Positions 1,156 to 59,375 of a DNA stretch of 64,000 nt are shown in pieces (the stretch's first letter is position 1; each line of letters opens with the position of its first letter). The notes beneath the pieces were generated by a model that saw only the letters and a program-made list of their open reading frames with translations, was not told where the DNA came from and ran no database searches. A program made the position numbers and the translations under genes. This DNA is from a bacterium (GTDB lineage: Bacteria > Hydrothermota > 32-111): contig JBFXGO010000001.1 in assembly GCA_050239825.1 (NCBI GenBank), forward strand, positions 73,478 to 137,477. The letters are read 5' to 3'.

Positions 1156-1333
1156 GAAGGTACGTTCTTCTTCTGATATTTGCTTCAGTTTTTCTTTTCT
1201 GTCAGGATTCACAGGATAGTTTGTCATTGCAGGAAGAGAGAATTACATCCTTCCTGTCCGATGTGGTAATAAGAGAGGACGGAGTGCTTGAGGTAACCGA
1301 AACAATACGAGTTTACGAGGCGGAGGATGGTGA
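1152..1333 (+). pseudogene. DUF2207-family membrane protein remnant (large internal deletion)
   Basis: A signal peptide and ERITSFLSDVVIREDGVLEVTETIRVY resemble a DUF2207 N-terminus, in the usual position after lemA. They are joined out of frame at about 1317 to GGC GGA GGA TGG TGA (GGGW*, 1319-1333), the typical DUF2207 C-terminus. Confidence 0.75.
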
Positions 1334-1338
1334 GATGG

Positions 1339-2500
1339 TAAGACAAAATCTTACTCAACAGTGTCACCCTGAACTATTCAGTAGTTATGACTATCGTGAA
1401 GGGTCTATCAGTTTATTGTTAATTGATTATTGAAGATTGAGCTGGGGCTACACGCGGGTGTAGCGTCGGCTCACACACTCCGCTTCGCCGCTTTATCAAG
1501 ATGGGATAGCGGAGCAAGGGGACAACCACTTGATGGGCGTCTGCGCAGAGCGTCCTCGCCGACTTGTAGCTTTCGTGTATCAATAAGTTATTTAATTGAT
1601 TGAATCTTCACAAAGCATTGGCGCGGGTGTAATGTGCGCGAACGCACATGATAGACGCTTCGGGTTGCACCAGAACTTTGTGAAAATTATTGAAAAGGCA
1701 AAATCTTAATCAAAAGCTATCCCTAGTTCAAAATCACTAGTCGCAAATCAAGAAATATGAGGGGGCTGATGAATAGCATAGCGTCGGCTCGCACACTCCG
1801 CTTCGCCGCTTAATCAAAAGCTATCCCTAGTCCAAAATCACTAGTCGCAAATCAAGAAATATGAGGAGGCTGATGAATAGCGTAGCGTCGGCTCGCACAC
1901 TCCGCTTCGCCGCTTAATCAAGATGGGTTAGCGGAGCAAGGGGAGAACCACTTGATGGGCGTCTGCGCGGAGCGTCCTCGCCGACTTGTAGCTTTCACTT
2001 TCAATAAGTTAATTAATTGATTGTCCTCATGAGAAGCATTGAAAAGACGAGCGCTGTGGACAGGCTTCTCATTCGGAATTGTAAAGACAAAATCTTACTC
2101 AACAGTGTCACCCTGAACTATTCAGTAGTTATGACTATCGTGAAGGGTCTATCAGTTTATTGTTAATTGATTATTGAAGATTGAGCTGGGGCTACACGCG
2201 GGTGTAGCGTCGGCTCACACACTCCGCTTCGCCGCTTAATCAAGATGGGATAGCGGAGCAAGGGGAGAACCACTTGATGGGCGTCTTCGCGGAGCGTCCT
2301 CGCCGACTTGTAGCTTACGTGTATCAATAAGTTAATTAATTGATTGTCCTCATGAGAAGCATTGAAAAGACGAGCGCTGTGGACAGGCTTCTCATTCGGA
2401 ACTGTAAAGACAAGTCATTTAATCATCTGTCCTATTGTATTTAAACTCGCAACCCGTAACTAGAAATGGAATTATCTATCAGTTTATTGGTTATTCGCTG
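1339..2500 (+). repeat. Modular palindromic repeat array 1 (3 full 99-nt cores and 1 partial)
   Basis: Cores GTCGGC...GCCGAC at 1465-1563, 1887-1985 and 2209-2307, and a partial core at about 1783-1817. They are separated by hairpin modules that recur in arrays 2 and 3. Confidence 0.95.
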
Positions 2501-3000: not shown

Positions 3001-6000
3001 ATGCTGAATTTGGTGCCTGAATTTATATTAAACAAACTAAATAAAAATGAGATGAGCGGTATTGCGGAGGGTTCTGCTTTATTTGTTGATATAAAAGGAT
3101 TCACGCACATGACGGAAACTCTGATGAAGGAAAATGACAAGGGAAGCGAAATCCTGTCTGAAATAATAAATGAAATATTCCACTCACTCATTTCTCCAAT
3201 ACACAAATATAACGGTTTCATAGCCACATTCGCCGGAGATGCATTCACCGCTATTTTCCCGGATGATACAGGGATAAACTCCGCCGGAGCTTCAATAGAT
3301 ATAGTTAGAGAGATTGAAAAGAACAGAATCAAGAAGACAGTTTTGGGGGATTTCGAGATAGCTGTAAGAATCGGCGTTTCGGCTGGAGTCATAGAATGGG
3401 CAATCGTAGGAGATGATAGTAATCTTTCATACTATTTCAAAGGGCAGACGATAGATGATGCCGCTGAGGCAGAGGCAGAGTCTCTTCCGAATGAAATCAA
3501 CCTGCATGAGTCGGTTTTAAAAAATCTGCCGGCAGATTTTTTCCAAGAAAAAGAAAATAAATATTTTCTTTTAAAGAGCAGTAAGATAAAGAAACCTTCC
3601 TTGAAGACAGAGATAATAGAGAATGACCATTTAACCGGAAAATTTTTCAACATCAAGCTGATGCCCGAGAAGTTTACCGGAGAGTTCCGCGACGCTTCAT
3701 CTCTCTTCGTTTCATTCAGGAATTATGACGCATTTGAAAAAATAAACTCTCTTATGAAGATGATAATAAATTATACAAGAGAATATAAAGGCTACTTCAA
3801 CATGATTGATTTCGGAGATAAGGGAGCGAAGGTTGTGATACTTTTCGGAGCTCCCGTATCATTCGAAAAAAACCTTGAGAGGTCTATTGAATGCGCAAAA
3901 GCGATTGTCTCTCTCGACGAAAAGAATATAAGAGCCGCTTTAACTTACGGTAGAGTATATGCCGGCTATATCGGCTCAAGAGAAAGATGTACATACACGA
4001 TACTTGGCGATAAAGTAAACATGTCTGCAAGAATTATGAGCAGTTCGCCGTACGGCGCTCTCTGGACAGAGAAACATGTGGCAGAGGAAATGAAGTGGAA
4101 GTATGTTTTTTCTGAAATAGGAGAGATTCTCTTCAAAGGGAAATCAAGAAAAGAGATGGTGTATGAGATAAAGTCAAAAAAGAATCTGAGCAGGGAGGAG
4201 ACGCTTTTTGAAAATGAAATTGTTGGAAGAGAACGAGAGGTCGGCAGAATCCAGCAAATCGTGGATGAAAAACTAATGAACGGAAAATTTGGAGGAGTTG
4301 TAAACATCTATGGCGATCCGGGAGTCGGAAAATCTCGTCTGATGTTTGAAATAATGCAGAAGAATTCCGAGGTATGCACCATTGCTCTTCTCAAAAATGA
4401 CGACATTTACAATAAAAGTTTTTTACCATTTGAGATATTTCTAAAGAAGCTTTTTGGTCAGATAAACAATGAGAGCGAAAAGCAGAGGAAAGATGAGTTT
4501 GAAAATTCATGGAAGCGGGTGATTTCTGCTTCGCCCGAATGTGAAAACAAATGGACGGATGAAGAAATCAGCCACACCAAGGATATGCTGAAAGGGTTTT
4601 TGAAAATAGCGGAAAAAGATTCACAATGGGAATCAATGGATTCCAAGCTGAAATTTGAAAATGCTGTTTTTGCCATCAAACATCTGCTTAAGATAATCTC
4701 ATTGGAAAAACCTCTTATTATCTGCGTAGAAGATATCCAGTGGCAGGATAAGGAATCAAATGAGGTGTTTAAAGTTCTTGCAAGAAAGATAGAGGATTAT
4801 CCGATTCTTGTAGTTACTACCTCACGATATTCGGATGACGGCTCAAAAATTACACTGCCTGTCGAAGCGGAGTGTCCTGTGAATGAAATTACAGTTGGCC
4901 TATTTGACCTTGAGCAGAGCAGGGATTATATTTCAAAACAGCTTATATTTTCGCCATCCGAAAATCTGATAGAGAAAATTTTTCAAAAGACAGAAGGCAA
5001 TCCTTTCTACATAGAACAGATATCTTTGTATCTTATCGAGAATGAAATCCTTGAAATAAAGAATGATGAGTATTGCCTGAAAAAGGATATTGAAGATATT
5101 CCGCAAGGGATAAATGCAATAATCATTGCGAGAATTGACAGGCTAACGAGAGAACTGAAGGAGATGGTGCAGAGCGCCGCAGTGTTGGGCAGAGAGTTTG
5201 AAATAGATGTTCTTTCGAAAATGCTTTCGGGAAGGATGGATGAAAAATCCCTTTCTGAAGGCGTCGATGAGAAAATATGGCAACCCCTAAATCAGTTGAA
5301 ATATATATTCAAGCACAACATGATGAGAGATGCGGCATACAATATGCAGTTGAAAAACAAACTGAAAGAGCTTCATCTTGTAGCGGCGAATGCTCTTGAA
5401 AGAATCCACGGAAAGGAGATGGAAAAATATGCGGATATGGCTTATCACTATGAAAAAGGCGAAGTTTTCGACAAAGCCAAATACTATTATAAAGAAACAG
5501 GAATTGAATCCAAAAATAATTTTAGAAACTATGATGCGGAAAAATATCTTCTGGCGGCATTGAAATACTCTGATGACAGGAATGAATATTTTGATCTGAA
5601 CCTTGCTCTGGGGGAGGTATACTACCAAATGGGGGAATGGGAAAAAACGAAAATTATTTACGAGAATCTTGTTTCCGGCATGAAAGAAGCGGACGATGAT
5701 ATCAGGAAAGCCAGAACATTTCTTGCCTATGGAGAACTTTTGTTTGAAAGAGGCGAAATAGAGATGTCCAAAGAATCTTTTAAAAAGGCGGAAGTGATTT
5801 TCCAGACCGCTCAAAACAGAGAGGGCATGACAATGGTGCTGATGGGAAGAGCTCAGACATGTTGGAGAGCGGGCGATCTTGACATCAGCAGGGAGCTGTA
5901 TCAAAAGGCGCTTGATATGGCTGAAGAGCTCAATAACAGCAAGTTGATAGCTGAAATACTTTTAACCATGGGCAACATCAACAAAGACAAGTGTGAATTT

Positions 6001-7050
6001 AATGAGGCGATGGAGTACTACGAAAAGTCAAAGAAGCTTTGCACGGAGAATAATCATAAAACAGGTCTCTGCGGAGTAATAGGCAACATGGGGTTGATAG
6101 AATGGATGAAGGGAAATTATGAAAAGGCTATGGATTATTTCAATGAAGAGATGGAGGTGGCAAAAACCATAGGTAGTAAATTCGTGCTTAGTTACATATA
6201 CGGAAATATGGGTTCGGTCTATTTTCACATGAACCTCTTTGACAAGGCGGAAGAGCACTATCTAAAACAGATTGCAATTGCCGAGGAGCTGGGTGAGAAA
6301 AAAAATATCAGGATTGCGCTCAACAATCTCGGCGGAGTATGCGAAATGAGAGGAGATTATGAAAAAGAGCTCGATTATTTCCAGAAGAGCCTGAAGATAG
6401 CGGAGGAGCTGAATGCGAAAATGGGAATAAGGATAGTGTTGAGCAATATAGGAAATGTGTATGGAAAGTGGGGTCAGCATGATAAATCTCTGGATTATTT
6501 CACAAGAAGCCTGAAGATCGCTGAGGAGCTGGGCGATAAAAGAGGAATTTCCATTTTGAAAATGAATCTTGCATGTTCATACAATCTTCTTGGAGATATT
6601 GAAAGGGCGGAAGAGAATATTGATGAAGCATTGAAGATAATGATTGAATACAATCTAAATCCTAATATGGCAAAAGCGCTTTTAGAAAAATCGAAAATAC
6701 TCTTTAAAAAAGAAAAGTATGATGAAGCTTTAGTTAAAATTGAAGAGGGGTTAAAAGCTCTGGAAAAAGGTGAAGTGCTCCTATCGGAGAGTGAAAGAAT
6801 AGGGCTCATTATTCTGAAGTGTCTCATGATTTCTAAAAGAAACAAGGAAGAGGGGAAAGAAAAACTTTTAGAATTGCTCAATGACGCCAAAGAAAAATCG
6901 GATATAGGCGATGTGTATAATGCATTGCTTGAAATATCAGGAGACGATTCATACAGGATTAAGGCGATTGAATCTTATGAGCAGTACTACTCATCCCATC
7001 CGGTAAAAGAAATAGAAGACAAAATAAAATCTCTCAGGAGAGAAAAATGA
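3001..7050 (+). CDS. Class III adenylate/guanylate cyclase (two cyclase domains, sAC-like) + STAND/AAA ATPase + TPR repeats
   Basis: C1: FVDIKGFT and FAGDA. C2: GDKG, LFGAP and YTILGDKVNMSARIM. Walker A GDPGVGKS, Walker B ICVEDIQW, then GNPFYIEQ and AAVLGREF, and many TPRs. Confidence 0.92.
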   Translation: MLNLVPEFILNKLNKNEMSGIAEGSALFVDIKGFTHMTETLMKENDKGSEILSEIINEIFHSLISPIHKYNGFIATFAGDAFTAIFPDDTGINSAGASIDIVREIEKNRIKKTVLGDFEIAVRIGVSAGVIEWAIVGDDSNLSYYFKGQTIDDAAEAEAESLPNEINLHESVLKNLPADFFQEKENKYFLLKSSKIKKPSLKTEIIENDHLTGKFFNIKLMPEKFTGEFRDASSLFVSFRNYDAFEKINSLMKMIINYTREYKGYFNMIDFGDKGAKVVILFGAPVSFEKNLERSIECAKAIVSLDEKNIRAALTYGRVYAGYIGSRERCTYTILGDKVNMSARIMSSSPYGALWTEKHVAEEMKWKYVFSEIGEILFKGKSRKEMVYEIKSKKNLSREETLFENEIVGREREVGRIQQIVDEKLMNGKFGGVVNIYGDPGVGKSRLMFEIMQKNSEVCTIALLKNDDIYNKSFLPFEIFLKKLFGQINNESEKQRKDEFENSWKRVISASPECENKWTDEEISHTKDMLKGFLKIAEKDSQWESMDSKLKFENAVFAIKHLLKIISLEKPLIICVEDIQWQDKESNEVFKVLARKIEDYPILVVTTSRYSDDGSKITLPVEAECPVNEITVGLFDLEQSRDYISKQLIFSPSENLIEKIFQKTEGNPFYIEQISLYLIENEILEIKNDEYCLKKDIEDIPQGINAIIIARIDRLTRELKEMVQSAAVLGREFEIDVLSKMLSGRMDEKSLSEGVDEKIWQPLNQLKYIFKHNMMRDAAYNMQLKNKLKELHLVAANALERIHGKEMEKYADMAYHYEKGEVFDKAKYYYKETGIESKNNFRNYDAEKYLLAALKYSDDRNEYFDLNLALGEVYYQMGEWEKTKIIYENLVSGMKEADDDIRKARTFLAYGELLFERGEIEMSKESFKKAEVIFQTAQNREGMTMVLMGRAQTCWRAGDLDISRELYQKALDMAEELNNSKLIAEILLTMGNINKDKCEFNEAMEYYEKSKKLCTENNHKTGLCGVIGNMGLIEWMKGNYEKAMDYFNEEMEVAKTIGSKFVLSYIYGNMGSVYFHMNLFDKAEEHYLKQIAIAEELGEKKNIRIALNNLGGVCEMRGDYEKELDYFQKSLKIAEELNAKMGIRIVLSNIGNVYGKWGQHDKSLDYFTRSLKIAEELGDKRGISILKMNLACSYNLLGDIERAEENIDEALKIMIEYNLNPNMAKALLEKSKILFKKEKYDEALVKIEEGLKALEKGEVLLSESERIGLIILKCLMISKRNKEEGKEKLLELLNDAKEKSDIGDVYNALLEISGDDSYRIKAIESYEQYYSSHPVKEIEDKIKSLRREK

Positions 7051-8422: not shown

Positions 8423-8519
8423 TACTTCAGTATCTTGATAAAAATCAAATTGTAAAGATGTGCATATTGACAACCGATGTCTAATCATTATTATTTTAGA
8501 TAATAAAAAAGAGGAGATT

Positions 8520-11500
8520 ATGATTGGAAAATTTTTTTTCGCGGACATATCAAATTTCACAAAGACAACTGAAATGTTTATCAAAAAGAGTCAATACGGT
8601 CAGGAGGTTATAAGGGATATCGTGGACTCGGTATTTTCCGGCGCAATTCAGAAAATATATGAGAAAGACGGGTATGTAATTCTATTTGCAGGCGACGGAC
8701 TCCTATTCTATCTCTCTCCCGAGTTTTCAAATTCCGTCAGAAGCGAGTTTGAAAAAAACATAGATAAGTTCAACAGAAAAATGTCAACCGAGCTGGGCAT
8801 AAAAATAGAAGAGATGACTGAAAATCTATTTCCTCATATCGTAAAAGCAGAAAAAAGAGAGTTTATCTACTTTCATCCCCAGATATCTTCTTTCACCTAT
8901 GAGGATATAAAAGAGAGTATCAATCTCGATTTTCCTCCCGTAATAGGGGAGATGAGAAAAAAAAATTCTCTTGGCGAGCTGAGGGAGATACCTGCAGGTT
9001 TCATAAATATTGCAGAGGAGAAGAAACCCGAGGATTTGAGAGAGTTTTTCGAGCAGATGATTTCAGAGGCAGACAGAGAACAGGTTTATGTCAATAAAAT
9101 AGAATGGGCGGATAAGGGATGGATGGTTCTTGTTGCCTGTGGGATGCCTGTCTCCGTGGAGAATGCTCCGATGCGTCTTCTTTACTATATGAATTACCTG
9201 CTCAAAAAGGCTGAACAACTTGGAATAGAGATTAAAATCGGATGCACCCTGAAGAAGGGATATGCAGGAATAATAGGCGGAGAAGAGAGATGGGAATACA
9301 CATTCATTGGGGGAAACATAAATCTGGCGGCAAGAATTGCAGTCAAGGGGGAGAGTATGAAGATATTCTCCGACAAGAGTTTTGCGGATGCAGTATCGTC
9401 ATCCGCTCTGTTTGACAAATACGGCGATTTTACTTTCAAAGGAATAAATGAACCGGTCGAAGTCATGTGTTTCAAAGAGTTTTCTGATTCATCAAAAAAG
9501 GATTTGTTTGTCGGCAGGCAGAAAGAGACCGCAGAGGCGATCTCTGCTCTCTCGAAAGATTCAACATGTCTTTTGGTCTCCGGAGAGGGGGGAATCGGAA
9601 AAACCCATTTTGTAAATTCAGTTTTGAAAAGTATTCCGTTTTCAACCATAAAGACTATCTGTTCACAGAGAAAAGAGCCATTCTTTCTTGCGATGAAAAT
9701 TCTTTTGGAAATGGATAAAGCAAGAGACAGCATAGATTCCTATGAGTCCGTCTTTCTAAGATTATCAAAAATGCAAACAGTCAAAGAGAGATTCAAGCAT
9801 CTTTTAAATTCATTCACCAAAAGTGTTTTGATAATTATTGACGATTCACAATATATTGATTCTGAGTCCCTAGAGCTTTTGAATTGGGTCTTTTTTGAGA
9901 GACCGGAGCATATCAGGTTCATATTTATAGGAAGGGAAATGAAGAATCTTTCATTCATAAAATCAAAGCTCTCTAAATTTGCTTATACTGAAATAAATTT
10001 GATTGGTTTCAATGAGGAAGGCATTTCGGATTTTCTCTTCAAAAGCACAATGCTAAAGCCAAAACCTGAGGATGTGCGCGAACTTTCCCGCATTTCTGGA
10101 GGAAATCCGCTCTATCTAAACCAGATTATCTCTTTCATGCTAAAGGAAAACAACATCGAATCAAAGGGAGGATATCTTAATTTCAAATCAAGAATTCAGG
10201 ATTTTCCATATTCTCTTAAAGAGCTCATTCTGGTGAAGTTCGACAGATTCCCCGCTGTCACCAAGAATTTTGTGGAAACAGGCTCTGTGATAGGGGAAGA
10301 ATTCGTAAACTCAATAGCTTTGAATTCAACGGGATCGGAAGACAGCATAGAGAATGCAGTGACGCCTGCGGTGGAAAATAAAATTCTAAGCAGAAAATAC
10401 GAAACAGTCTCAATGTTTTATCATTCGATAGTCAAACAGACAATATTTGACAGAATGCTCAAAAAAAGAATTGATGAAATCTGCGTCAAAGTGGGTGATG
10501 AGATGGCAAGGAGCAGTGATAATCCGTTTATGCTTCTTCAGGCTGGGGATTTTTACGCTTCAGCCGGACACAGCAGGGCATTCGATATGTTCATCTCCGC
10601 GGCGAGGCTTTTTAAGAATGACAGGAACTCAATTTATGCTTCTCACTCTCTTAATAAAGCTCTCTCACAGAGTGTGCCTCCGCAAAAACAGCTTGAAGCG
10701 GTCATTCTGTACCCGGAAATTTCCAGACAGCATGTCGATAAAGAGTTCTTAGAAAACGCATTTTCAGCTCTTATCAGAGTAAAAGAAAAGCTTAGCAAAG
10801 ATGATGCATCCGTTTATGAGTCCATAGCATACGGTTTTTTGAATATTCTAAGGGAAAACAAAAAGACAGAGCATGTACTGCGCCTTTATAAAGAGAAGTG
10901 CGGAGAGACATTCGGATACTGCATGCTCAAGGGAAGATTGGAGAAGGAAAAAAAGTCGATAGCCGGAGCCTTGAAGGTTTATAAGGATATCAAAAAGAGA
11001 TTTAAGATGAATTTTAACGAAGAATTTGAATATTATCTTGCAGTTGCATCATTTTATTTTTTTAATACAACCGACAGGAAAAATCTCGCAGTTAATCTGA
11101 AGAAACTCGAACTTGCAAGCAGAAAATTAAAGGATTCTGCAAAGAAAGCTGCTTACTTTGATTTTATGACATCCGTTTTCCTGCACACCAATGAAATTAA
11201 AAAGGCAGAGGCGTTCGCAGATAAGAATCTTCTGTTTGCGAAAAAAAGCGGTCAGACAGACCTTTTGACATCTCTCTACAACACATTCGCAATAATCAAC
11301 TCAAACAAATTCTTCAAAACGAAGAACCGCAAGTATGAAAAACTCTCATTGAAGTATCATAAAAAAATCTACGATATTTACAAAAAGGATATGAACCTCT
11401 CAGCTCTTCCGCTGATCACGACTAATTTGGGAATGGCATATCTAATGGCCGGTGACGCAAAAAAGAATTTTCACTACCTTTATGAAGGACTCCTCTACGG

Positions 11501-12248
11501 ACTTGAAATAGACCACCCTGTCGAGGTTCCTTACAATTACATACTGCTCTCTCTCTACATGTATGAACGAGGTGCCGAAAAAGCGGCATTTAATCTTTCC
11601 GATTTCATAATAAATTACAAACACAAAATCGATATATGCTCCACATCATTTTTCATGAAATATCTGCAGACCAGAGAAAGAAAATTTCTGAAGAGAGGAT
11701 TGAACATTTCAGAGCGTTACCTGAAGAGACAGAATACACCGCCATATCAGATATACTATGATTTGATGTTTATGAAGCATTACAGAGACAAGAACACAGA
11801 CGAAATGAAGAGATTGATGAAACAGATATCCGAATTTGAAAAGAAGGCGAATCTGAGGCAAAATACGAAAAATAAGTTCAGGCAGATGAAACTGATTTCT
11901 AAACTGGAGTCAGGCTCTGCAGATGCCGTTGAAGCAGAAAAATCGGTAAATGAGGCGATGAAGATGAAGCTTTACTCGGCGACTGCGATAATGCTGTTTT
12001 TTTCCTACGGAAAATTCCTTATCTCGAAAAATAAGATTGACGAAGGGTTGAAGAGCATTGCAGAAGGACGCAGACTTTCAAAAAAACTTCTGTTCTTCAA
12101 CCACACCCTTGCGATTGATGAGTATCTATCGGCAGAAATTAAAATGAACGCGGCTTCCATAAAGAGAACAGAAGAGAGCAGAAATACCCTGAAAATAATA
12201 TCAAGCTTTGAAAATCTTGAGCAGTTCAAAGCATTCATCGAAGAGTAA
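8520..12248 (+). CDS. Divergent class III cyclase + STAND/AAA ATPase + helical repeat protein
   Basis: GAGGAG RBS before ATG 8520; FFADISNFT, FAGDG, ADKG and YTFIGGNINLAARI cyclase motifs; Walker A GEGGIGKT, Walker B IIIDDSQY and GGNPLYL. Confidence 0.85.
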   Translation: MIGKFFFADISNFTKTTEMFIKKSQYGQEVIRDIVDSVFSGAIQKIYEKDGYVILFAGDGLLFYLSPEFSNSVRSEFEKNIDKFNRKMSTELGIKIEEMTENLFPHIVKAEKREFIYFHPQISSFTYEDIKESINLDFPPVIGEMRKKNSLGELREIPAGFINIAEEKKPEDLREFFEQMISEADREQVYVNKIEWADKGWMVLVACGMPVSVENAPMRLLYYMNYLLKKAEQLGIEIKIGCTLKKGYAGIIGGEERWEYTFIGGNINLAARIAVKGESMKIFSDKSFADAVSSSALFDKYGDFTFKGINEPVEVMCFKEFSDSSKKDLFVGRQKETAEAISALSKDSTCLLVSGEGGIGKTHFVNSVLKSIPFSTIKTICSQRKEPFFLAMKILLEMDKARDSIDSYESVFLRLSKMQTVKERFKHLLNSFTKSVLIIIDDSQYIDSESLELLNWVFFERPEHIRFIFIGREMKNLSFIKSKLSKFAYTEINLIGFNEEGISDFLFKSTMLKPKPEDVRELSRISGGNPLYLNQIISFMLKENNIESKGGYLNFKSRIQDFPYSLKELILVKFDRFPAVTKNFVETGSVIGEEFVNSIALNSTGSEDSIENAVTPAVENKILSRKYETVSMFYHSIVKQTIFDRMLKKRIDEICVKVGDEMARSSDNPFMLLQAGDFYASAGHSRAFDMFISAARLFKNDRNSIYASHSLNKALSQSVPPQKQLEAVILYPEISRQHVDKEFLENAFSALIRVKEKLSKDDASVYESIAYGFLNILRENKKTEHVLRLYKEKCGETFGYCMLKGRLEKEKKSIAGALKVYKDIKKRFKMNFNEEFEYYLAVASFYFFNTTDRKNLAVNLKKLELASRKLKDSAKKAAYFDFMTSVFLHTNEIKKAEAFADKNLLFAKKSGQTDLLTSLYNTFAIINSNKFFKTKNRKYEKLSLKYHKKIYDIYKKDMNLSALPLITTNLGMAYLMAGDAKKNFHYLYEGLLYGLEIDHPVEVPYNYILLSLYMYERGAEKAAFNLSDFIINYKHKIDICSTSFFMKYLQTRERKFLKRGLNISERYLKRQNTPPYQIYYDLMFMKHYRDKNTDEMKRLMKQISEFEKKANLRQNTKNKFRQMKLISKLESGSADAVEAEKSVNEAMKMKLYSATAIMLFFSYGKFLISKNKIDEGLKSIAEGRRLSKKLLFFNHTLAIDEYLSAEIKMNAASIKRTEESRNTLKIISSFENLEQFKAFIEE

Positions 12249-24850: not shown

Positions 24851-25893
24851 ATTTGTTATTCGCTGATGGCAGGCGTAGCGTCGGCTCGCACACTCCGCTT
24901 CGCCGCTTTATCAAGATGGGATAGCGGAGCAAGGAGAGAACCACTTGATGGGCGTCTGCGCGGAGCGTCCTCGCCGACTTGTAGCTTTCACTTTCAATAA
25001 GTTAATTAATTGAATGAATCTTCTAAAACCATTGGCGCGGGTGTAATGTGCGCGAACGTCCATGATAGAAAGAACGGGTTGCACCAGAAGTTTTAGAAGA
25101 TTACTGAAAAGACTAAATATTAATCAACTCCCCGTATTAAGCTCATGGCACACGGCACACGGCTCAGGGCTGATTTAGTGGCTGCACGCGGGCATAGCAT
25201 CGGCTCGCACACTCCGCTTCGCCGCTATATCAAGATGGGATAGCGGAGCAAGGGGAGAACCACTTGATGGGCGTCTGCGCGGAGCGTCCTCGCCGACTTG
25301 TAGCTTTCACTTTCAATAAGTTATTTAATTGATTGAATCTTCTAAAACCATTGGCGCGGGTGTAATGTGCGCGAACGTCCATGATAGAGGTATCGGGTTG
25401 CACCAGAAGTTTTAGAAGATTACTGTAAAGAATAAATATTAATCAGCTCCACGTATTGTATTTAAACTCGCAACTCGTAACCCGTAACTCGAAACTGAAT
25501 TATCTTTTAATATTGATGACTGCACTGGAATTTTTCCTCGGAACTGTAAAGGCAAGTCATTTACTCATCTCTCCGTATTTTGCTCATGGCACATGGCTCA
25601 AGGCTCAGGGCTGATTTTGGGGGCTGCTGGCAGGCGTGCGTCAGCTCACACACTCCGCTTCGCCGCTTTATCAAGATGGGATAGCGGAGCAAGGGGTCGC
25701 CCACTTGATGGGCGTCTTCGCGGAGCGTCCTCGCCGACTTGTAGCTTTCACTTTCAATAAGAACCTGTTGTGGGGACACACCGAAGGAATGTCCCCAAAC
25801 ATTGAATAGCAGTGCGGAGATGCACTGGAATTTTTCCTCGGAACTGTAAAGCCAAGTCATTTACTTAATTCTCCGTATTATGTTTAAACTCGT
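24851..25893 (+). repeat. Modular palindromic repeat array 2 (3 cores)
   Basis: Cores at 24880-24978, 25199-25297 and 25640-25738, with the same modules as arrays 1 and 3. Confidence 0.95.
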
Positions 25894-25979: not shown

Positions 25980-26007
25980 TTGACTCTGATTCATTTTATT
26001 GTAAAAT
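25980..26007 (+). promoter_or_regulatory. Sigma-70 promoter, probable leaderless transcript
   Basis: TTGACT-N16-TAAAAT ending 6 nt before ATG 26014; no SD sequence. Confidence 0.5.
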
Positions 26008-56976: not shown

Positions 56977-59292
56977 CATTGTACAGAGAAGCGCTGTGGA
57001 CAGGCTTCTCATTCGGAACTGTAAAGGCAAAATCTTTCTCAACCGTGTCACCCTGAACGCCTCTATGGTTATGACTATCGTGAAGGGTCTATCAGTTTAT
57101 TGTTAATTGAAGTTTGTTTATAGGCTACTGACGGGTGTAGCGTCGGCTCACACACTCCGCTTCGCCGCTTAATCAAGATGGGTTAGCGTAGCAAGGAGAC
57201 AACCATTTGATGGGCGTCTTCGCGGAGCGTCCTCGCCGACTTTAAGCTTTCGTATATCAATAAGTTAATTAATTGTTTGTTGCAGTGGGGACACACCGAA
57301 GGAATGTCCCCACATTGGCGAGGGCGTAATGGACGCGAGCGCACATGATAGACGCCTTGGGCTGCACCAGAACTTTGTGAAGATTACTGTAAATACAAAA
57401 TCTTACTCAGCAGTGTCACCCTGAACGCCTCTATGGTTATGACTATCGTGAAGGGTCTATCATTTGATTGATTATTGATAATTGAAGATTGAGCTGGGGC
57501 TGCACGCGGGCGTAGCGTCGGCTCACACACTCCGCTTCGCCGCTTTATCAAGATGGGATAGCGGAGCAAGGAGACAACCACTTGATGGGCGTCTGCGCGG
57601 AGCGTCCTCGCCGACTTGCAGCTTTCGTGTATCAATAAGTTAATTAATTGTTTGTTGCAGTGGGGACACACCGAAGGAATGTCCCCACATTGGCGAGGGC
57701 GTAATGGACGCGAGCGTCCATGATAGAAAGAATGGGTTGTACCAGAAGTTTTAGAAGATTACTGAAAATACAAAATCTTATTCAACAGTGTCACCCTGAA
57801 CTACGCTTTAGTTATGACTATCGTGAAGGGTCTATCATTTGATTGATTATTGATAATTGAAGATTGAACTGGGGCTGCACGCGGGCATAGCGTCGGCTCG
57901 CACACTCCGCTTCGCCGCTTAATCAAGATGGGATAGCGGAGCAAGGGGTCGCCCACTTGATGGGCGTCTTCGCGGAGCGTCCTCGCCGACTTGTAGCTTT
58001 CGTGTATCAATAAGTTAATTAATTGTTTGTTGCAGTGGGGACACACCGAAGGAATGTCCCCACATTGGCGAGGGTGTAATGTGCGCGAGCGCACATGATA
58101 GACGCCTTGGGCTGCACCAGAACTTTGTGAAGATTACTGTAAATACAAAATCTTACTCAGCGGTGTCACCCTGAACGCCTCTATGGTTATGACTATCGTG
58201 AAGGGTCTATCAGTTGATTGATTATTGATAATTGAAGATTGAGCTGGGGCTGCTGGCGGGCTTAGCGTCGGCTCACACACTCCGCTTCGCCGCTTTATCA
58301 AGATGGGTTAGCGGAGCAAGGGGTCGCCCACTTGATGGGCGTCTTCGCGGAGCGTCCTCGCCGACTTTAAGCTTTCGTGTATCAATAAGTTAATTAATTG
58401 ATTGTCCTCATGAGAAGCATTGTACAGAGAAGCGCTGTGGACAGGCTTCTCATTCGGAACTGTAAAGACAAAATCTTACTCAACTGTGTCACCCGGAATT
58501 ATTCAGTAGTTATGACTCAACAATGTCACCCTGAACGCCTCTATGGTTATGACTATCGTGAAGGGTCTATCAGTTGATTGATTATTGATAATTGAAGATT
58601 GAGCTGGGGCTGCACGCGGGCATAGCGTCGGCTCACACACTCCGCTTCGCCGCTTTATCAAGATGGGTTAGCGGAGCAAGGGGTCGCCCACTTGATGGGC
58701 GTCTTCGCGGAGCGTCCTCGCCGACTTTAAGCTTTCGTATATCAATAAGTTATTTAATTGATTGAATCTTCACAAAGCATTGGCTTGGGAGAAATGTGCG
58801 CTAACGCACATGATAGAGGTATCGGGTTGCACCAGAACTTTGTGAAGATTACTGTAAAGACAAAATCTTACTCAGCAGTGTCACCCTGAACGCCTCTATG
58901 GTTATGACTATCGTGAAGGGTCTATCATTTGATTGATTATTGATAATTGAAGATTGAGCTGGGGCTGCACGCGGGCGTAGCGTCGGCTCACACACTCCGC
59001 TTCGCCGCTTTATCAAGATGGGATAGCGGAGCAAGGAGACAACCACTTGATGGGCGTCTGCGCGGAGCGTCCTCGCCGACTTGCAGCTTTCGTGTATCAA
59101 TAAGTTAATTAATTGTTTGTTGCAGTGGGGACACACCGAAGGAATGTCCCCACATTGGCGAGGGCGTAATGGACGCGAGCGTCCATGATAGAAAGAATGG
59201 GTTGTACCAGAAGTTTTAGAAGATTACTGAAAAGAATAAATCTTGCTCAGCTCCCCGTATTTTGCTCACGGCTCATGACTGACTTGGTTGGC
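56977..59292 (+). repeat. Modular palindromic repeat array 3 (6 cores)
   Basis: Cores start at 57142, 57517, 57892, 58267, 58627 and 58982 (periods 375, 375, 375, 360, 355). Confidence 0.96.
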
Positions 59293-59375
59293 AACAGCGT
59301 AACCGCTCATCATCCCTTGACTATTATTTTTTTATACATACAATATATGTGTTATTTTAATTATAGGAGGATTTT

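Follow-up and report, generated by a model that had tools for sequence, protein, structure and literature searches.

The window, by which we mean the whole stretch of 64,000 nucleotides that was analysed, contains three gene-free stretches, each packed with modular units arranged head to tail. The genes around these arrays are of bacterial types (QueA, Tgt, a T9SS sorting domain; Pfam). The arrays are listed with their copies of module A, the leading part of the unit.

1293..2463, forward strand: array 1, three module-A copies, with a LemA-family gene on one side and a large cyclase/AAA/TPR gene on the other (repeat families D1-D5, blastn of one unit, Pfam of the neighbours)
24856..25882, forward strand: array 2, three module-A copies, starting 18 nt past the tgt stop codon and containing 25017..25102 (repeat search, blastn, Pfam)
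56977..59290, forward strand: array 3, six module-A copies in 375-nt units, flanked by an ORF with a PAS domain and an aminotransferase gene (repeat search, blastn, Pfam)

Beside array 1 lie proteins of 1349 and 1262 aa (3001-7050 and 8460-12248), with adenylate/guanylate cyclase and AAA/NB-ARC-like ATPase domains and, in the first, TPR; judging by these domains, they are STAND-type signalling proteins.

The repeat unit is non-coding, ~320-440 nt long (375 nt in array 3) and built in the order A-B-C, with observed spacings of 319, 322, 355, 360, 375, 422 and 441 nt. Module A, a long irregular hairpin of ~160 nt, is followed by slot B (~90-130 nt) and then by module C, module E or alternatives (~85 nt). 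The commonest occupant of slot B, type B1, holds a 13-bp outer stem and an inner hairpin; in type B2 a 25-nt hairpin takes the place of the 5' outer arm. The copies in the window on which the following results bear are given below.

25017..25102, forward strand: module B, type B1, outer-stem version h2; arms at 25017-25029 and 25090-25102; inner hairpin at 25046-25063 chimeric (TG..TC) with two pairs broken (alignment, folding)
58765..58850, forward strand: module B, type B1, outer-stem version h1; arms at 58765-58777 and 58838-58850; inner hairpin at 58794-58811 completely paired (alignment, folding)
1603..1688, forward strand: module B, type B1, version h1; outer stem with one C.A mismatch (3' arm ctttgtgaaAatt, 1676-1688); inner hairpin at 1632-1649
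25336..25421, forward strand: module B, type B1, version h2; arms at 25336-25348 and 25409-25421; inner hairpin chimeric here too
57662..57686, forward strand: 25-nt hairpin standing in for the 5' outer arm in type B2; 7-bp G/C-rich stem and C-GAA-G tip (pattern scan, fold)
57287-57311, 58037-58061, 59127-59151 and 25772-25796: other window copies of the 25-nt hairpin
57704..57721, forward strand: inner hairpin, GA..TC version, inside a B2 module whose 3' outer arm (57749-57761) is partnerless
57515..57638, forward strand: core of module A, the long irregular hairpin (12 window copies, repeat family D2), with helices GTCGGC/GCCGAC, CTCCGC/GCGGAG, CGCC/GGCG and ATCAAGaTGG/CCACTTGAT

A protein-coding origin of the repeat was rejected: stop-to-stop frames reach at most 124 aa (minus strand), every unit contains a stop and the spacings break the frame. 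The 375-nt unit equals exactly 125 codons, and 124-aa minus-strand frames lie at 57384-57758 and 58849-59223; because other unit lengths disrupt the frame, these were taken as chance.

The genome comprises 2.1 Mb on 67 contigs, and one unit used as blastn query returned 188 pieces on 34 of them. For module A, 122 nhmmer matches were grouped into 45 arrays genome-wide, three of them in the window, and in 44 of the 45 all module-A copies share one orientation. The family totals ~41.9 kb in 51 blocks, which corresponds to 2.0% of the genome and, with a crude ORF mask, to ~23% of the non-coding DNA of a genome that is 91% coding. Thus an uncultured WOR-3-type lineage with a compact ~2-Mb genome carries its own large hairpin-repeat family, amounting to about a fiftieth of its DNA and roughly a fifth of its non-coding DNA. 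The modules that close many of the arrays (for example 25120-25181 and 25561-25622) include runs of 7-8-nt mini-repeats, variable in number between arrays, of the types GGCACAC/GGCTCAC, CTCGTAAC/CCGTAAC and CTTTTAC. Many contigs of the sister genomes start or stop inside or beside the repeats (C5, C82, C77, C94 and others in G001; C26 in G002), and the family is thus a main cause of assembly breaks in the genus.

Four stems that a sequence-only reading of the window had quoted as cases of compensatory change were all found at their exact positions. For the outer stem these are aatcttcACaaaG/CtttGTgaagatt (58765-58777 with 58838-58850) and aatcttcTAaaaC/GtttTAgaagatt (25017-25029 with 25090-25102), which are versions h1 and h2 and differ by three matched double changes, as claimed. 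The genome contains 63 copies of module B, 41 with the 5' arm and 22 in which the 25-nt hairpin takes its place. Among the 41 armed copies, 35 are perfect (26 h1 and 9 h2), two have one A.C mismatch, three are mixed versions and one has a deletion. Eleven more copies from two sister species (seven and four) contribute two further versions with fully complementary arms, h3 (aatcttcGcaaag/ctttgCgaagatt) and h4 (cagattttcaaac/gtttgaaaatctg); compared with h2, h4 has five positions changed per arm, all five of them matched. The outer stem therefore exists in four completely complementary versions over three species of one genus, two of them in this genome. By simple combinatorics, the chance of matched complementary changes in a 13-nt arm is ~1.3e-4 for three changes and ~3e-6 for five. 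This is a clean case in which pairing is preserved across species and sequence is not.

For the partnerless 3' arm of the B2 copies, a search for an alternative partner yielded just interrupted, wobble-rich matches of 9-10 of 13 positions, and this idea was dropped. Within the 3' outer arm, the distal half, AAGATT, is also complementary to an AATCTT that lies ~13 nt further on, in the module-B tail (58843-58875 and equivalent positions), a possible alternative small hairpin that is weaker in the AATATT tail variant.

The inner hairpin likewise shows the two matched double changes that had been described, between atgTGcgcgaacgCAcat (1632-1649) and atgGAcgcgagcgTCcat (57704-57721), and at least five complementary versions of it were found. 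Two details escaped the sequence-only reading. The copy at 25017-25102, one of its two outer-stem examples, has a chimeric inner hairpin, atgTGcgcgaacgTCcat (25046-25063), with TG on the left and TC on the right and hence two broken pairs, and the copy at 57704-57721 lies in a module that lacks the 5' outer arm. Mixed-haplotype copies account for 3 of 41 outer stems and 5 of 63 inner hairpins. Two other candidate helices failed. The helix GGTG/CACC in module B is unsupported within the genome (double changes are absent, and 6 cells are G.U and 11 unpaired), and in relatives a single G-to-C change accompanied by C-to-G is no more than suggestive. The long-range pairing between the 3' half of module A and the core of module B, seen in the minimum-energy fold of the whole unit, lacks covariation support, as may be judged from the near-invariance of module A and from the frequent TG..CA form of the hairpin, which is incompatible with this pairing.

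The sequence-only reading had proposed a covariation check in a larger alignment, and a count of paired cells across aligned copies came out in favor of the pairing. Among 46 aligned copies and a named structure of 24 pairs, 94.3% of cells were paired, compared with 86.9 +/- 0.5% when the 3' letters were shuffled among copies (none of 500 shuffles was as high). The covariation score was 0.179 versus 0.081 after shuffling (0/500), and 9 of the 24 pairs had changes on both sides. As a control, sliding the partners by 1-3 columns reduced pairing to 33-48%. The count is conservative, since four G001 rows of the alignment were one column out of register.

Repeat copies share ancestry, and for this reason the linkage of the arms was also compared with what their distance alone would lead one to expect. 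The outer arms, ~70 nt apart, are linked with r2 0.87 (table 27/0/1/9, Fisher p 8e-8), whereas unpaired sites nearer to each other than these arms give r2 0.0-0.41. The inner arms give r2 0.68; this value is less telling because an adjacent unpaired site reaches 0.61. Clearly, the parts of module B have been shuffled by recombination, and yet the outer arms still correspond. Some process must tie them together, be it selection on the fold or correction of one arm against the other. Taken together, these comparisons support the view that complementarity is upheld by more than common descent.

The other modules behave similarly. Module A folds into nested helices, and in the sister species some of these have been exchanged whole: GTCGGC/GCCGAC for GCCGGC/GCCGGC, CTCCGC/GCGGAG for CTTTGC/GCAAAG, and CAAG/CTTG for CATG/CATG. 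Module A in those species also has a shorter tip hairpin, and one subfamily carries a wholly different long helix. Slot B is occupied by at least four unrelated hairpin cassettes, namely B1, B2 and two more with the outer stems ATGAGAAGC/GCTTCTCAT and GGAAAAA/TTTTTCC, each enclosing its own inner hairpin. A pattern scan of the genome for the 25-nt hairpin gave 57 matches in two hairpin families. The first, with a C-GAA-G or C-GTA-G tip, occurs in at least six sequence contexts, including the tip of module A, slot B and a position beside a tRNA-like sequence, and is oriented like the arrays in all cases (further examples at C7:59640 and C7:59803). It is usually preceded by GT or AT, with no fixed tetranucleotide. 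The second hairpin has the same stem, a different loop and its own conserved flanks (for example C25:182 and C25:2652). Each module has kept its capacity to fold back on itself, whereas its sequence has not been conserved.

Both other genomes of the genus carry the repeat, and it was absent from all 11 further genomes of the taxonomic family; a single 24-nt match in a distant genome is no more than chance would give. An exact two-motif pattern for module A, run against one genome for each of 185,579 species, matched only two other records, a MAG titled candidate division WOR-3 bacterium (five places) and another MAG (one place), and the same pattern matched seven contigs in a metagenome collection. 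No counterpart of the array after tgt was detected at the corresponding position in G002, G003 and G006 (one sister species and two other genera), and the contig of the other sister species stops 44 nt past tgt. Conversely, the place of one array of the sister genome G001 is taken here by a 278-nt gap that contains no array. These comparisons show that arrays have been gained and lost at intergenic sites. At the same time, 6 of 13 loci in the sister species adjoin an array of this genome, with flanking proteins ~55-93% identical. Sharing of sites between species implies that some of them predate the species split, and because the units at shared sites nevertheless differ by species, turnover or homogenization within each genome is indicated. 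Persistence of the six shared sites could reflect a benefit to the host.

In our estimate there is about an even chance that these sequences are a genus-restricted mosaic hairpin repeat of REP/BIME/BOX-like character, most likely maintained at the DNA level. On this account, arrays would grow by tandem duplication and be homogenized within the genome by gene conversion. Their hairpins would form in single-stranded DNA during replication, and complementarity would be kept if folded copies propagate or persist better, comparable to REP/REPIN sequences, the ends of IS200/IS605 elements and attC sites. Template switching might additionally repair one mismatched arm from the other. Read-through transcription of an array would produce RNA hairpins as a by-product, which may affect neighboring genes.

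As bacterial intergenic mosaic repeats, the family is a further example of an already known type. REP, BIME and REPIN sequences are, as here, intergenic high-copy hairpin repeats mixed with other motifs into mosaics and tandem clusters, and the shared features are the extragenic location, the high copy number and a hairpin kept by compensatory changes. In excerpts of the respective sources, compensatory changes are called common in REPINs, whose hairpins are predicted for single-stranded DNA (PMC3116915), and consecutive tandem copies are described for BIMEs (PMC8266576). The BOX elements of Streptococcus pneumoniae (boxA-boxB-boxC) are modular with a variable middle, expandable, strongly folded by prediction and endowed with chance open frames, and about 61% of them are oriented with the coding or leading strand, according to the passages on them in PMC3049150. 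The likeness to BOX is one of organization, not of sequence; the present family has a stronger orientation bias (36/42 arrays), multi-unit arrays and unrelated hairpin cassettes in slot B.

Three other systems offer partial parallels. Neisserial intergenic mosaic elements (NIMEs) form intergenic mosaic arrays of repeat units, and ERIC/IRU elements are long imperfect palindromes with insertions at fixed internal sites; both differ from the present family in lineage, unit size and module sequences. Integron attC sites conserve structure over sequence, are used as folded single-stranded DNA and depend on strand orientation. In contrast to attC arrays, no gene cassettes were found between the hairpins of our arrays, and the unit order is fixed. 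Repeats were not a topic in the titles and opening abstract lines of the literature on Stahlbacteria returned by a limited search.

An alternative of some weight, although on balance doubtful, is that the element acts at the RNA level: arrays would be co-transcribed with the upstream gene as a structured 3' UTR or spacer, their hairpins would stabilize, attenuate or process the mRNA, and selection on the RNA fold would keep the pairs. Several features of the layout fit this proposal. Arrays 2 and 3 begin 18-40 nt past a stop codon with no terminator between, and promoter-like sites of the downstream genes, which are consensus matches, come after these arrays.

59317..59344, forward strand: sigma-70-like promoter match TTGACT-16-TACAAT, located past array 3 and ahead of the gene that follows (consensus match only)
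25980-26007: second sigma-70-like promoter match, past array 2 (consensus match only)

Furthermore, array direction agrees with that of both neighbors in 14 of 15 arrays lying between co-directional genes, and the 13-bp stem appears in the minimum-energy fold of both h1 and h2. At a pair adjoining the outer stem, the relatives have U-A where this genome has a conserved U.G, as would suit an RNA helix. There is also precedent, since effects of BOX, BIME and ERIC repeats on co-transcribed genes are reported in the part of PMC3049150 that deals with them.

Other observations speak against it. At least five arrays start right after a terminator-like hairpin of the upstream gene and others precede one, so that position relative to transcript ends is not fixed. 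The stem folds under RNA and DNA models and on both strands; the whole unit folds better than shuffled sequences (z -4.3), but the minus strand folds at least equally well. Gene direction and GC skew are confounded, the arrays being oriented along the GC-skew-positive strand in 36 of 42 cases, and the orientation consequently fits an RNA role or strand-specific propagation of single-stranded DNA equally. Arrays are missing from orthologous sites in the sister genomes and hence do not belong to the conserved regulation of the genes concerned.

Direct searches for RNA signals were negative as well. The sequencing runs listed for this DNA were five DNA runs, three of them covering parts of the window, with no RNA run among them. 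No Rfam 15 family matched in the arrays, and at gathering score the window contained three tRNAs only; with E up to 10, array 3 gave four matches of 11-12.5 bits, far under the thresholds. Within the arrays sigma-70-like promoters were not enriched, and the sole terminator-like site is a module hairpin. This site, at 25810-25827 in the last unit of array 2, was discarded as a terminator because its hairpin and T-run belong to the repeat module and the T-run pairs with an upstream A-run; such hairpins numbered 22 in terminal and 26 in internal positions.

An RNA fold tolerates G.U and not A.C, so that the tolerated mismatch should be the commoner one when a single strand is read. Module A in this genome had 23 G.T cells (10 kinds) and 20 A.C cells (8 kinds), and the outer stem of module B had G.T in two copies against six copies with A.C (5 arm combinations). 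We thus observed no strand-specific tolerance of wobble pairs, in a test of low power given that the copies are near-identical and single mismatches probably recent.

The sequence-only reading had concluded that the covarying pairs mark a functional RNA or single-stranded DNA fold rather than drift. That the pairing is kept stands, on the strength of the four outer versions, the pair count and the linkage. The RNA part of the claim fares worse, given the absence of Rfam matches, wobble asymmetry and internal signals and the 22 of 63 copies without a 5' arm, and a fold in single-stranded DNA fits at least as well as one in RNA. The case also carries a caution, in that an RNA gene is not established by compensatory pairs within a repeat family alone.

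The near-equal numbers of G.T and A.C mismatches agree with maintenance of the pairs by mutation alone, a reading that we consider improbable. It holds that template switching or mismatch correction in a folded palindrome copies one arm onto the other in a single step, without selection or function. Such template switching during DNA replication has been proposed to create and maintain hairpins (PMC8794818, a PNAS paper of 2022 entitled 'Template switching in DNA replication can create and maintain RNA hairpins'), and it is a plausible source of the matched changes. The differences between versions are indeed clustered, with three changes within 6 nt and five within 13 nt, and are mirrored exactly on the opposite arm. 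However, purely mutational upkeep leaves unexplained why unrelated hairpin cassettes fill one slot and why the family takes so large a share, ~23%, of the non-coding DNA of a 91%-coding genome, and the mixed-haplotype copies (3/41 outer stems, 5/63 inner hairpins) have remained uncorrected.

The symmetry of the arms, their intergenic location and their high copy number might also suggest palindromic double-stranded binding sites for a dimeric nucleoid or regulatory protein. This is very unlikely, as at least four half-site versions coexist, two of them within one genome, the arms are 60 nt apart and the same slot is filled by unrelated cassettes. Scarcely credible is the idea that the 13-bp arms are the terminal inverted repeats of a small MITE whose two ends must suit the same DDE transposase: perfect 13-bp inverted ends ~60 nt apart in several discrete versions do fit it, but in the 63 copies inspected by eye module B stands behind a module-A tail in every case with legible upstream sequence, apart from one copy after module C, one at an N gap and one at a contig end, and so has not spread independently. 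Its edges show no visible target-site duplication, and covariation extends to the inner 7-bp hairpin, for which inverted ends give no reason.

Returning to maintenance at the DNA level, we looked for an enzyme that might act on the family. The genome encodes four Y1 (HUH) transposases of 259-301 aa with an HUH-type motif, which pass the cut-off of Pfam Y1_Tnp and score 56.6-73 bits against the NCBIfam RAYT model, whose cut-off is 80.

C14:63662-64483: Y1/RAYT-like gene (L011)
C5:4330-5109: Y1/RAYT-like gene (L012)
C56:11012-11902: Y1/RAYT-like gene (L013)
C18:43111-44016: Y1/RAYT-like gene (L014)

As in REP/RAYT systems, each Y1 gene is flanked by inverted repeats, here 25-36 nt long and belonging to families of 36, 16 and 12 copies. 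Among the dispersed copies are inverted pairs ~212 nt apart (for example C14:36254/36466 and C28:13895/14107), which resemble small non-autonomous elements. These repeats are none of modules A, B and C, and the arrangement that defines a REPtron, a Y1 gene flanked by inverted copies of the same dispersed repeat, is absent. For the repeat that flanks two of the genes, 14 of 36 copies lie in or at most 300 nt from arrays, 13 of these 14 in array orientation. This co-location appeared significant against the whole genome (p 3e-13), but against a non-coding baseline, with 31% expected, p was 0.21, and the link was dropped. Homologues of the Y1 proteins are spread over 22 of 31 relatives and 13 of 18 genera, and the majority of these genera have no arrays. 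Since the flanking repeats are not the modules, their co-location does not exceed the non-coding expectation and the homologues are mostly found in array-less genera, no enzyme can be assigned to the repeat family.

The modules themselves also depart from the REP pattern. REP and inverted REP sequences pair to form BIMEs and REPINs, whereas the modules here run head to tail, uniformly so in 44 of 45 arrays, in units of ~320-440 nt. A REP palindrome measures 20-50 nt and follows a conserved tetranucleotide such as GTAG; the 25-nt hairpin is of the right size, no GTAG-type head was seen on the stems, and the 13-bp stem encloses ~60 nt. With no REP/inverted-REP pairs, no cognate RAYT and no evident fixed head motif, the family is not a member of REP/RAYT as defined.

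A more speculative proposal, in which we place little confidence, is that an enzyme recognizing folded single-stranded DNA by its shape could build head-to-tail arrays, a mode of structure-specific propagation distinct from both RAYT/REP and attC recombination. It is prompted by the four or more unrelated cassettes in slot B, by the recurrence of the 25-nt hairpin in at least six contexts in array orientation, and by the alignment of arrays with the GC-skew strand.
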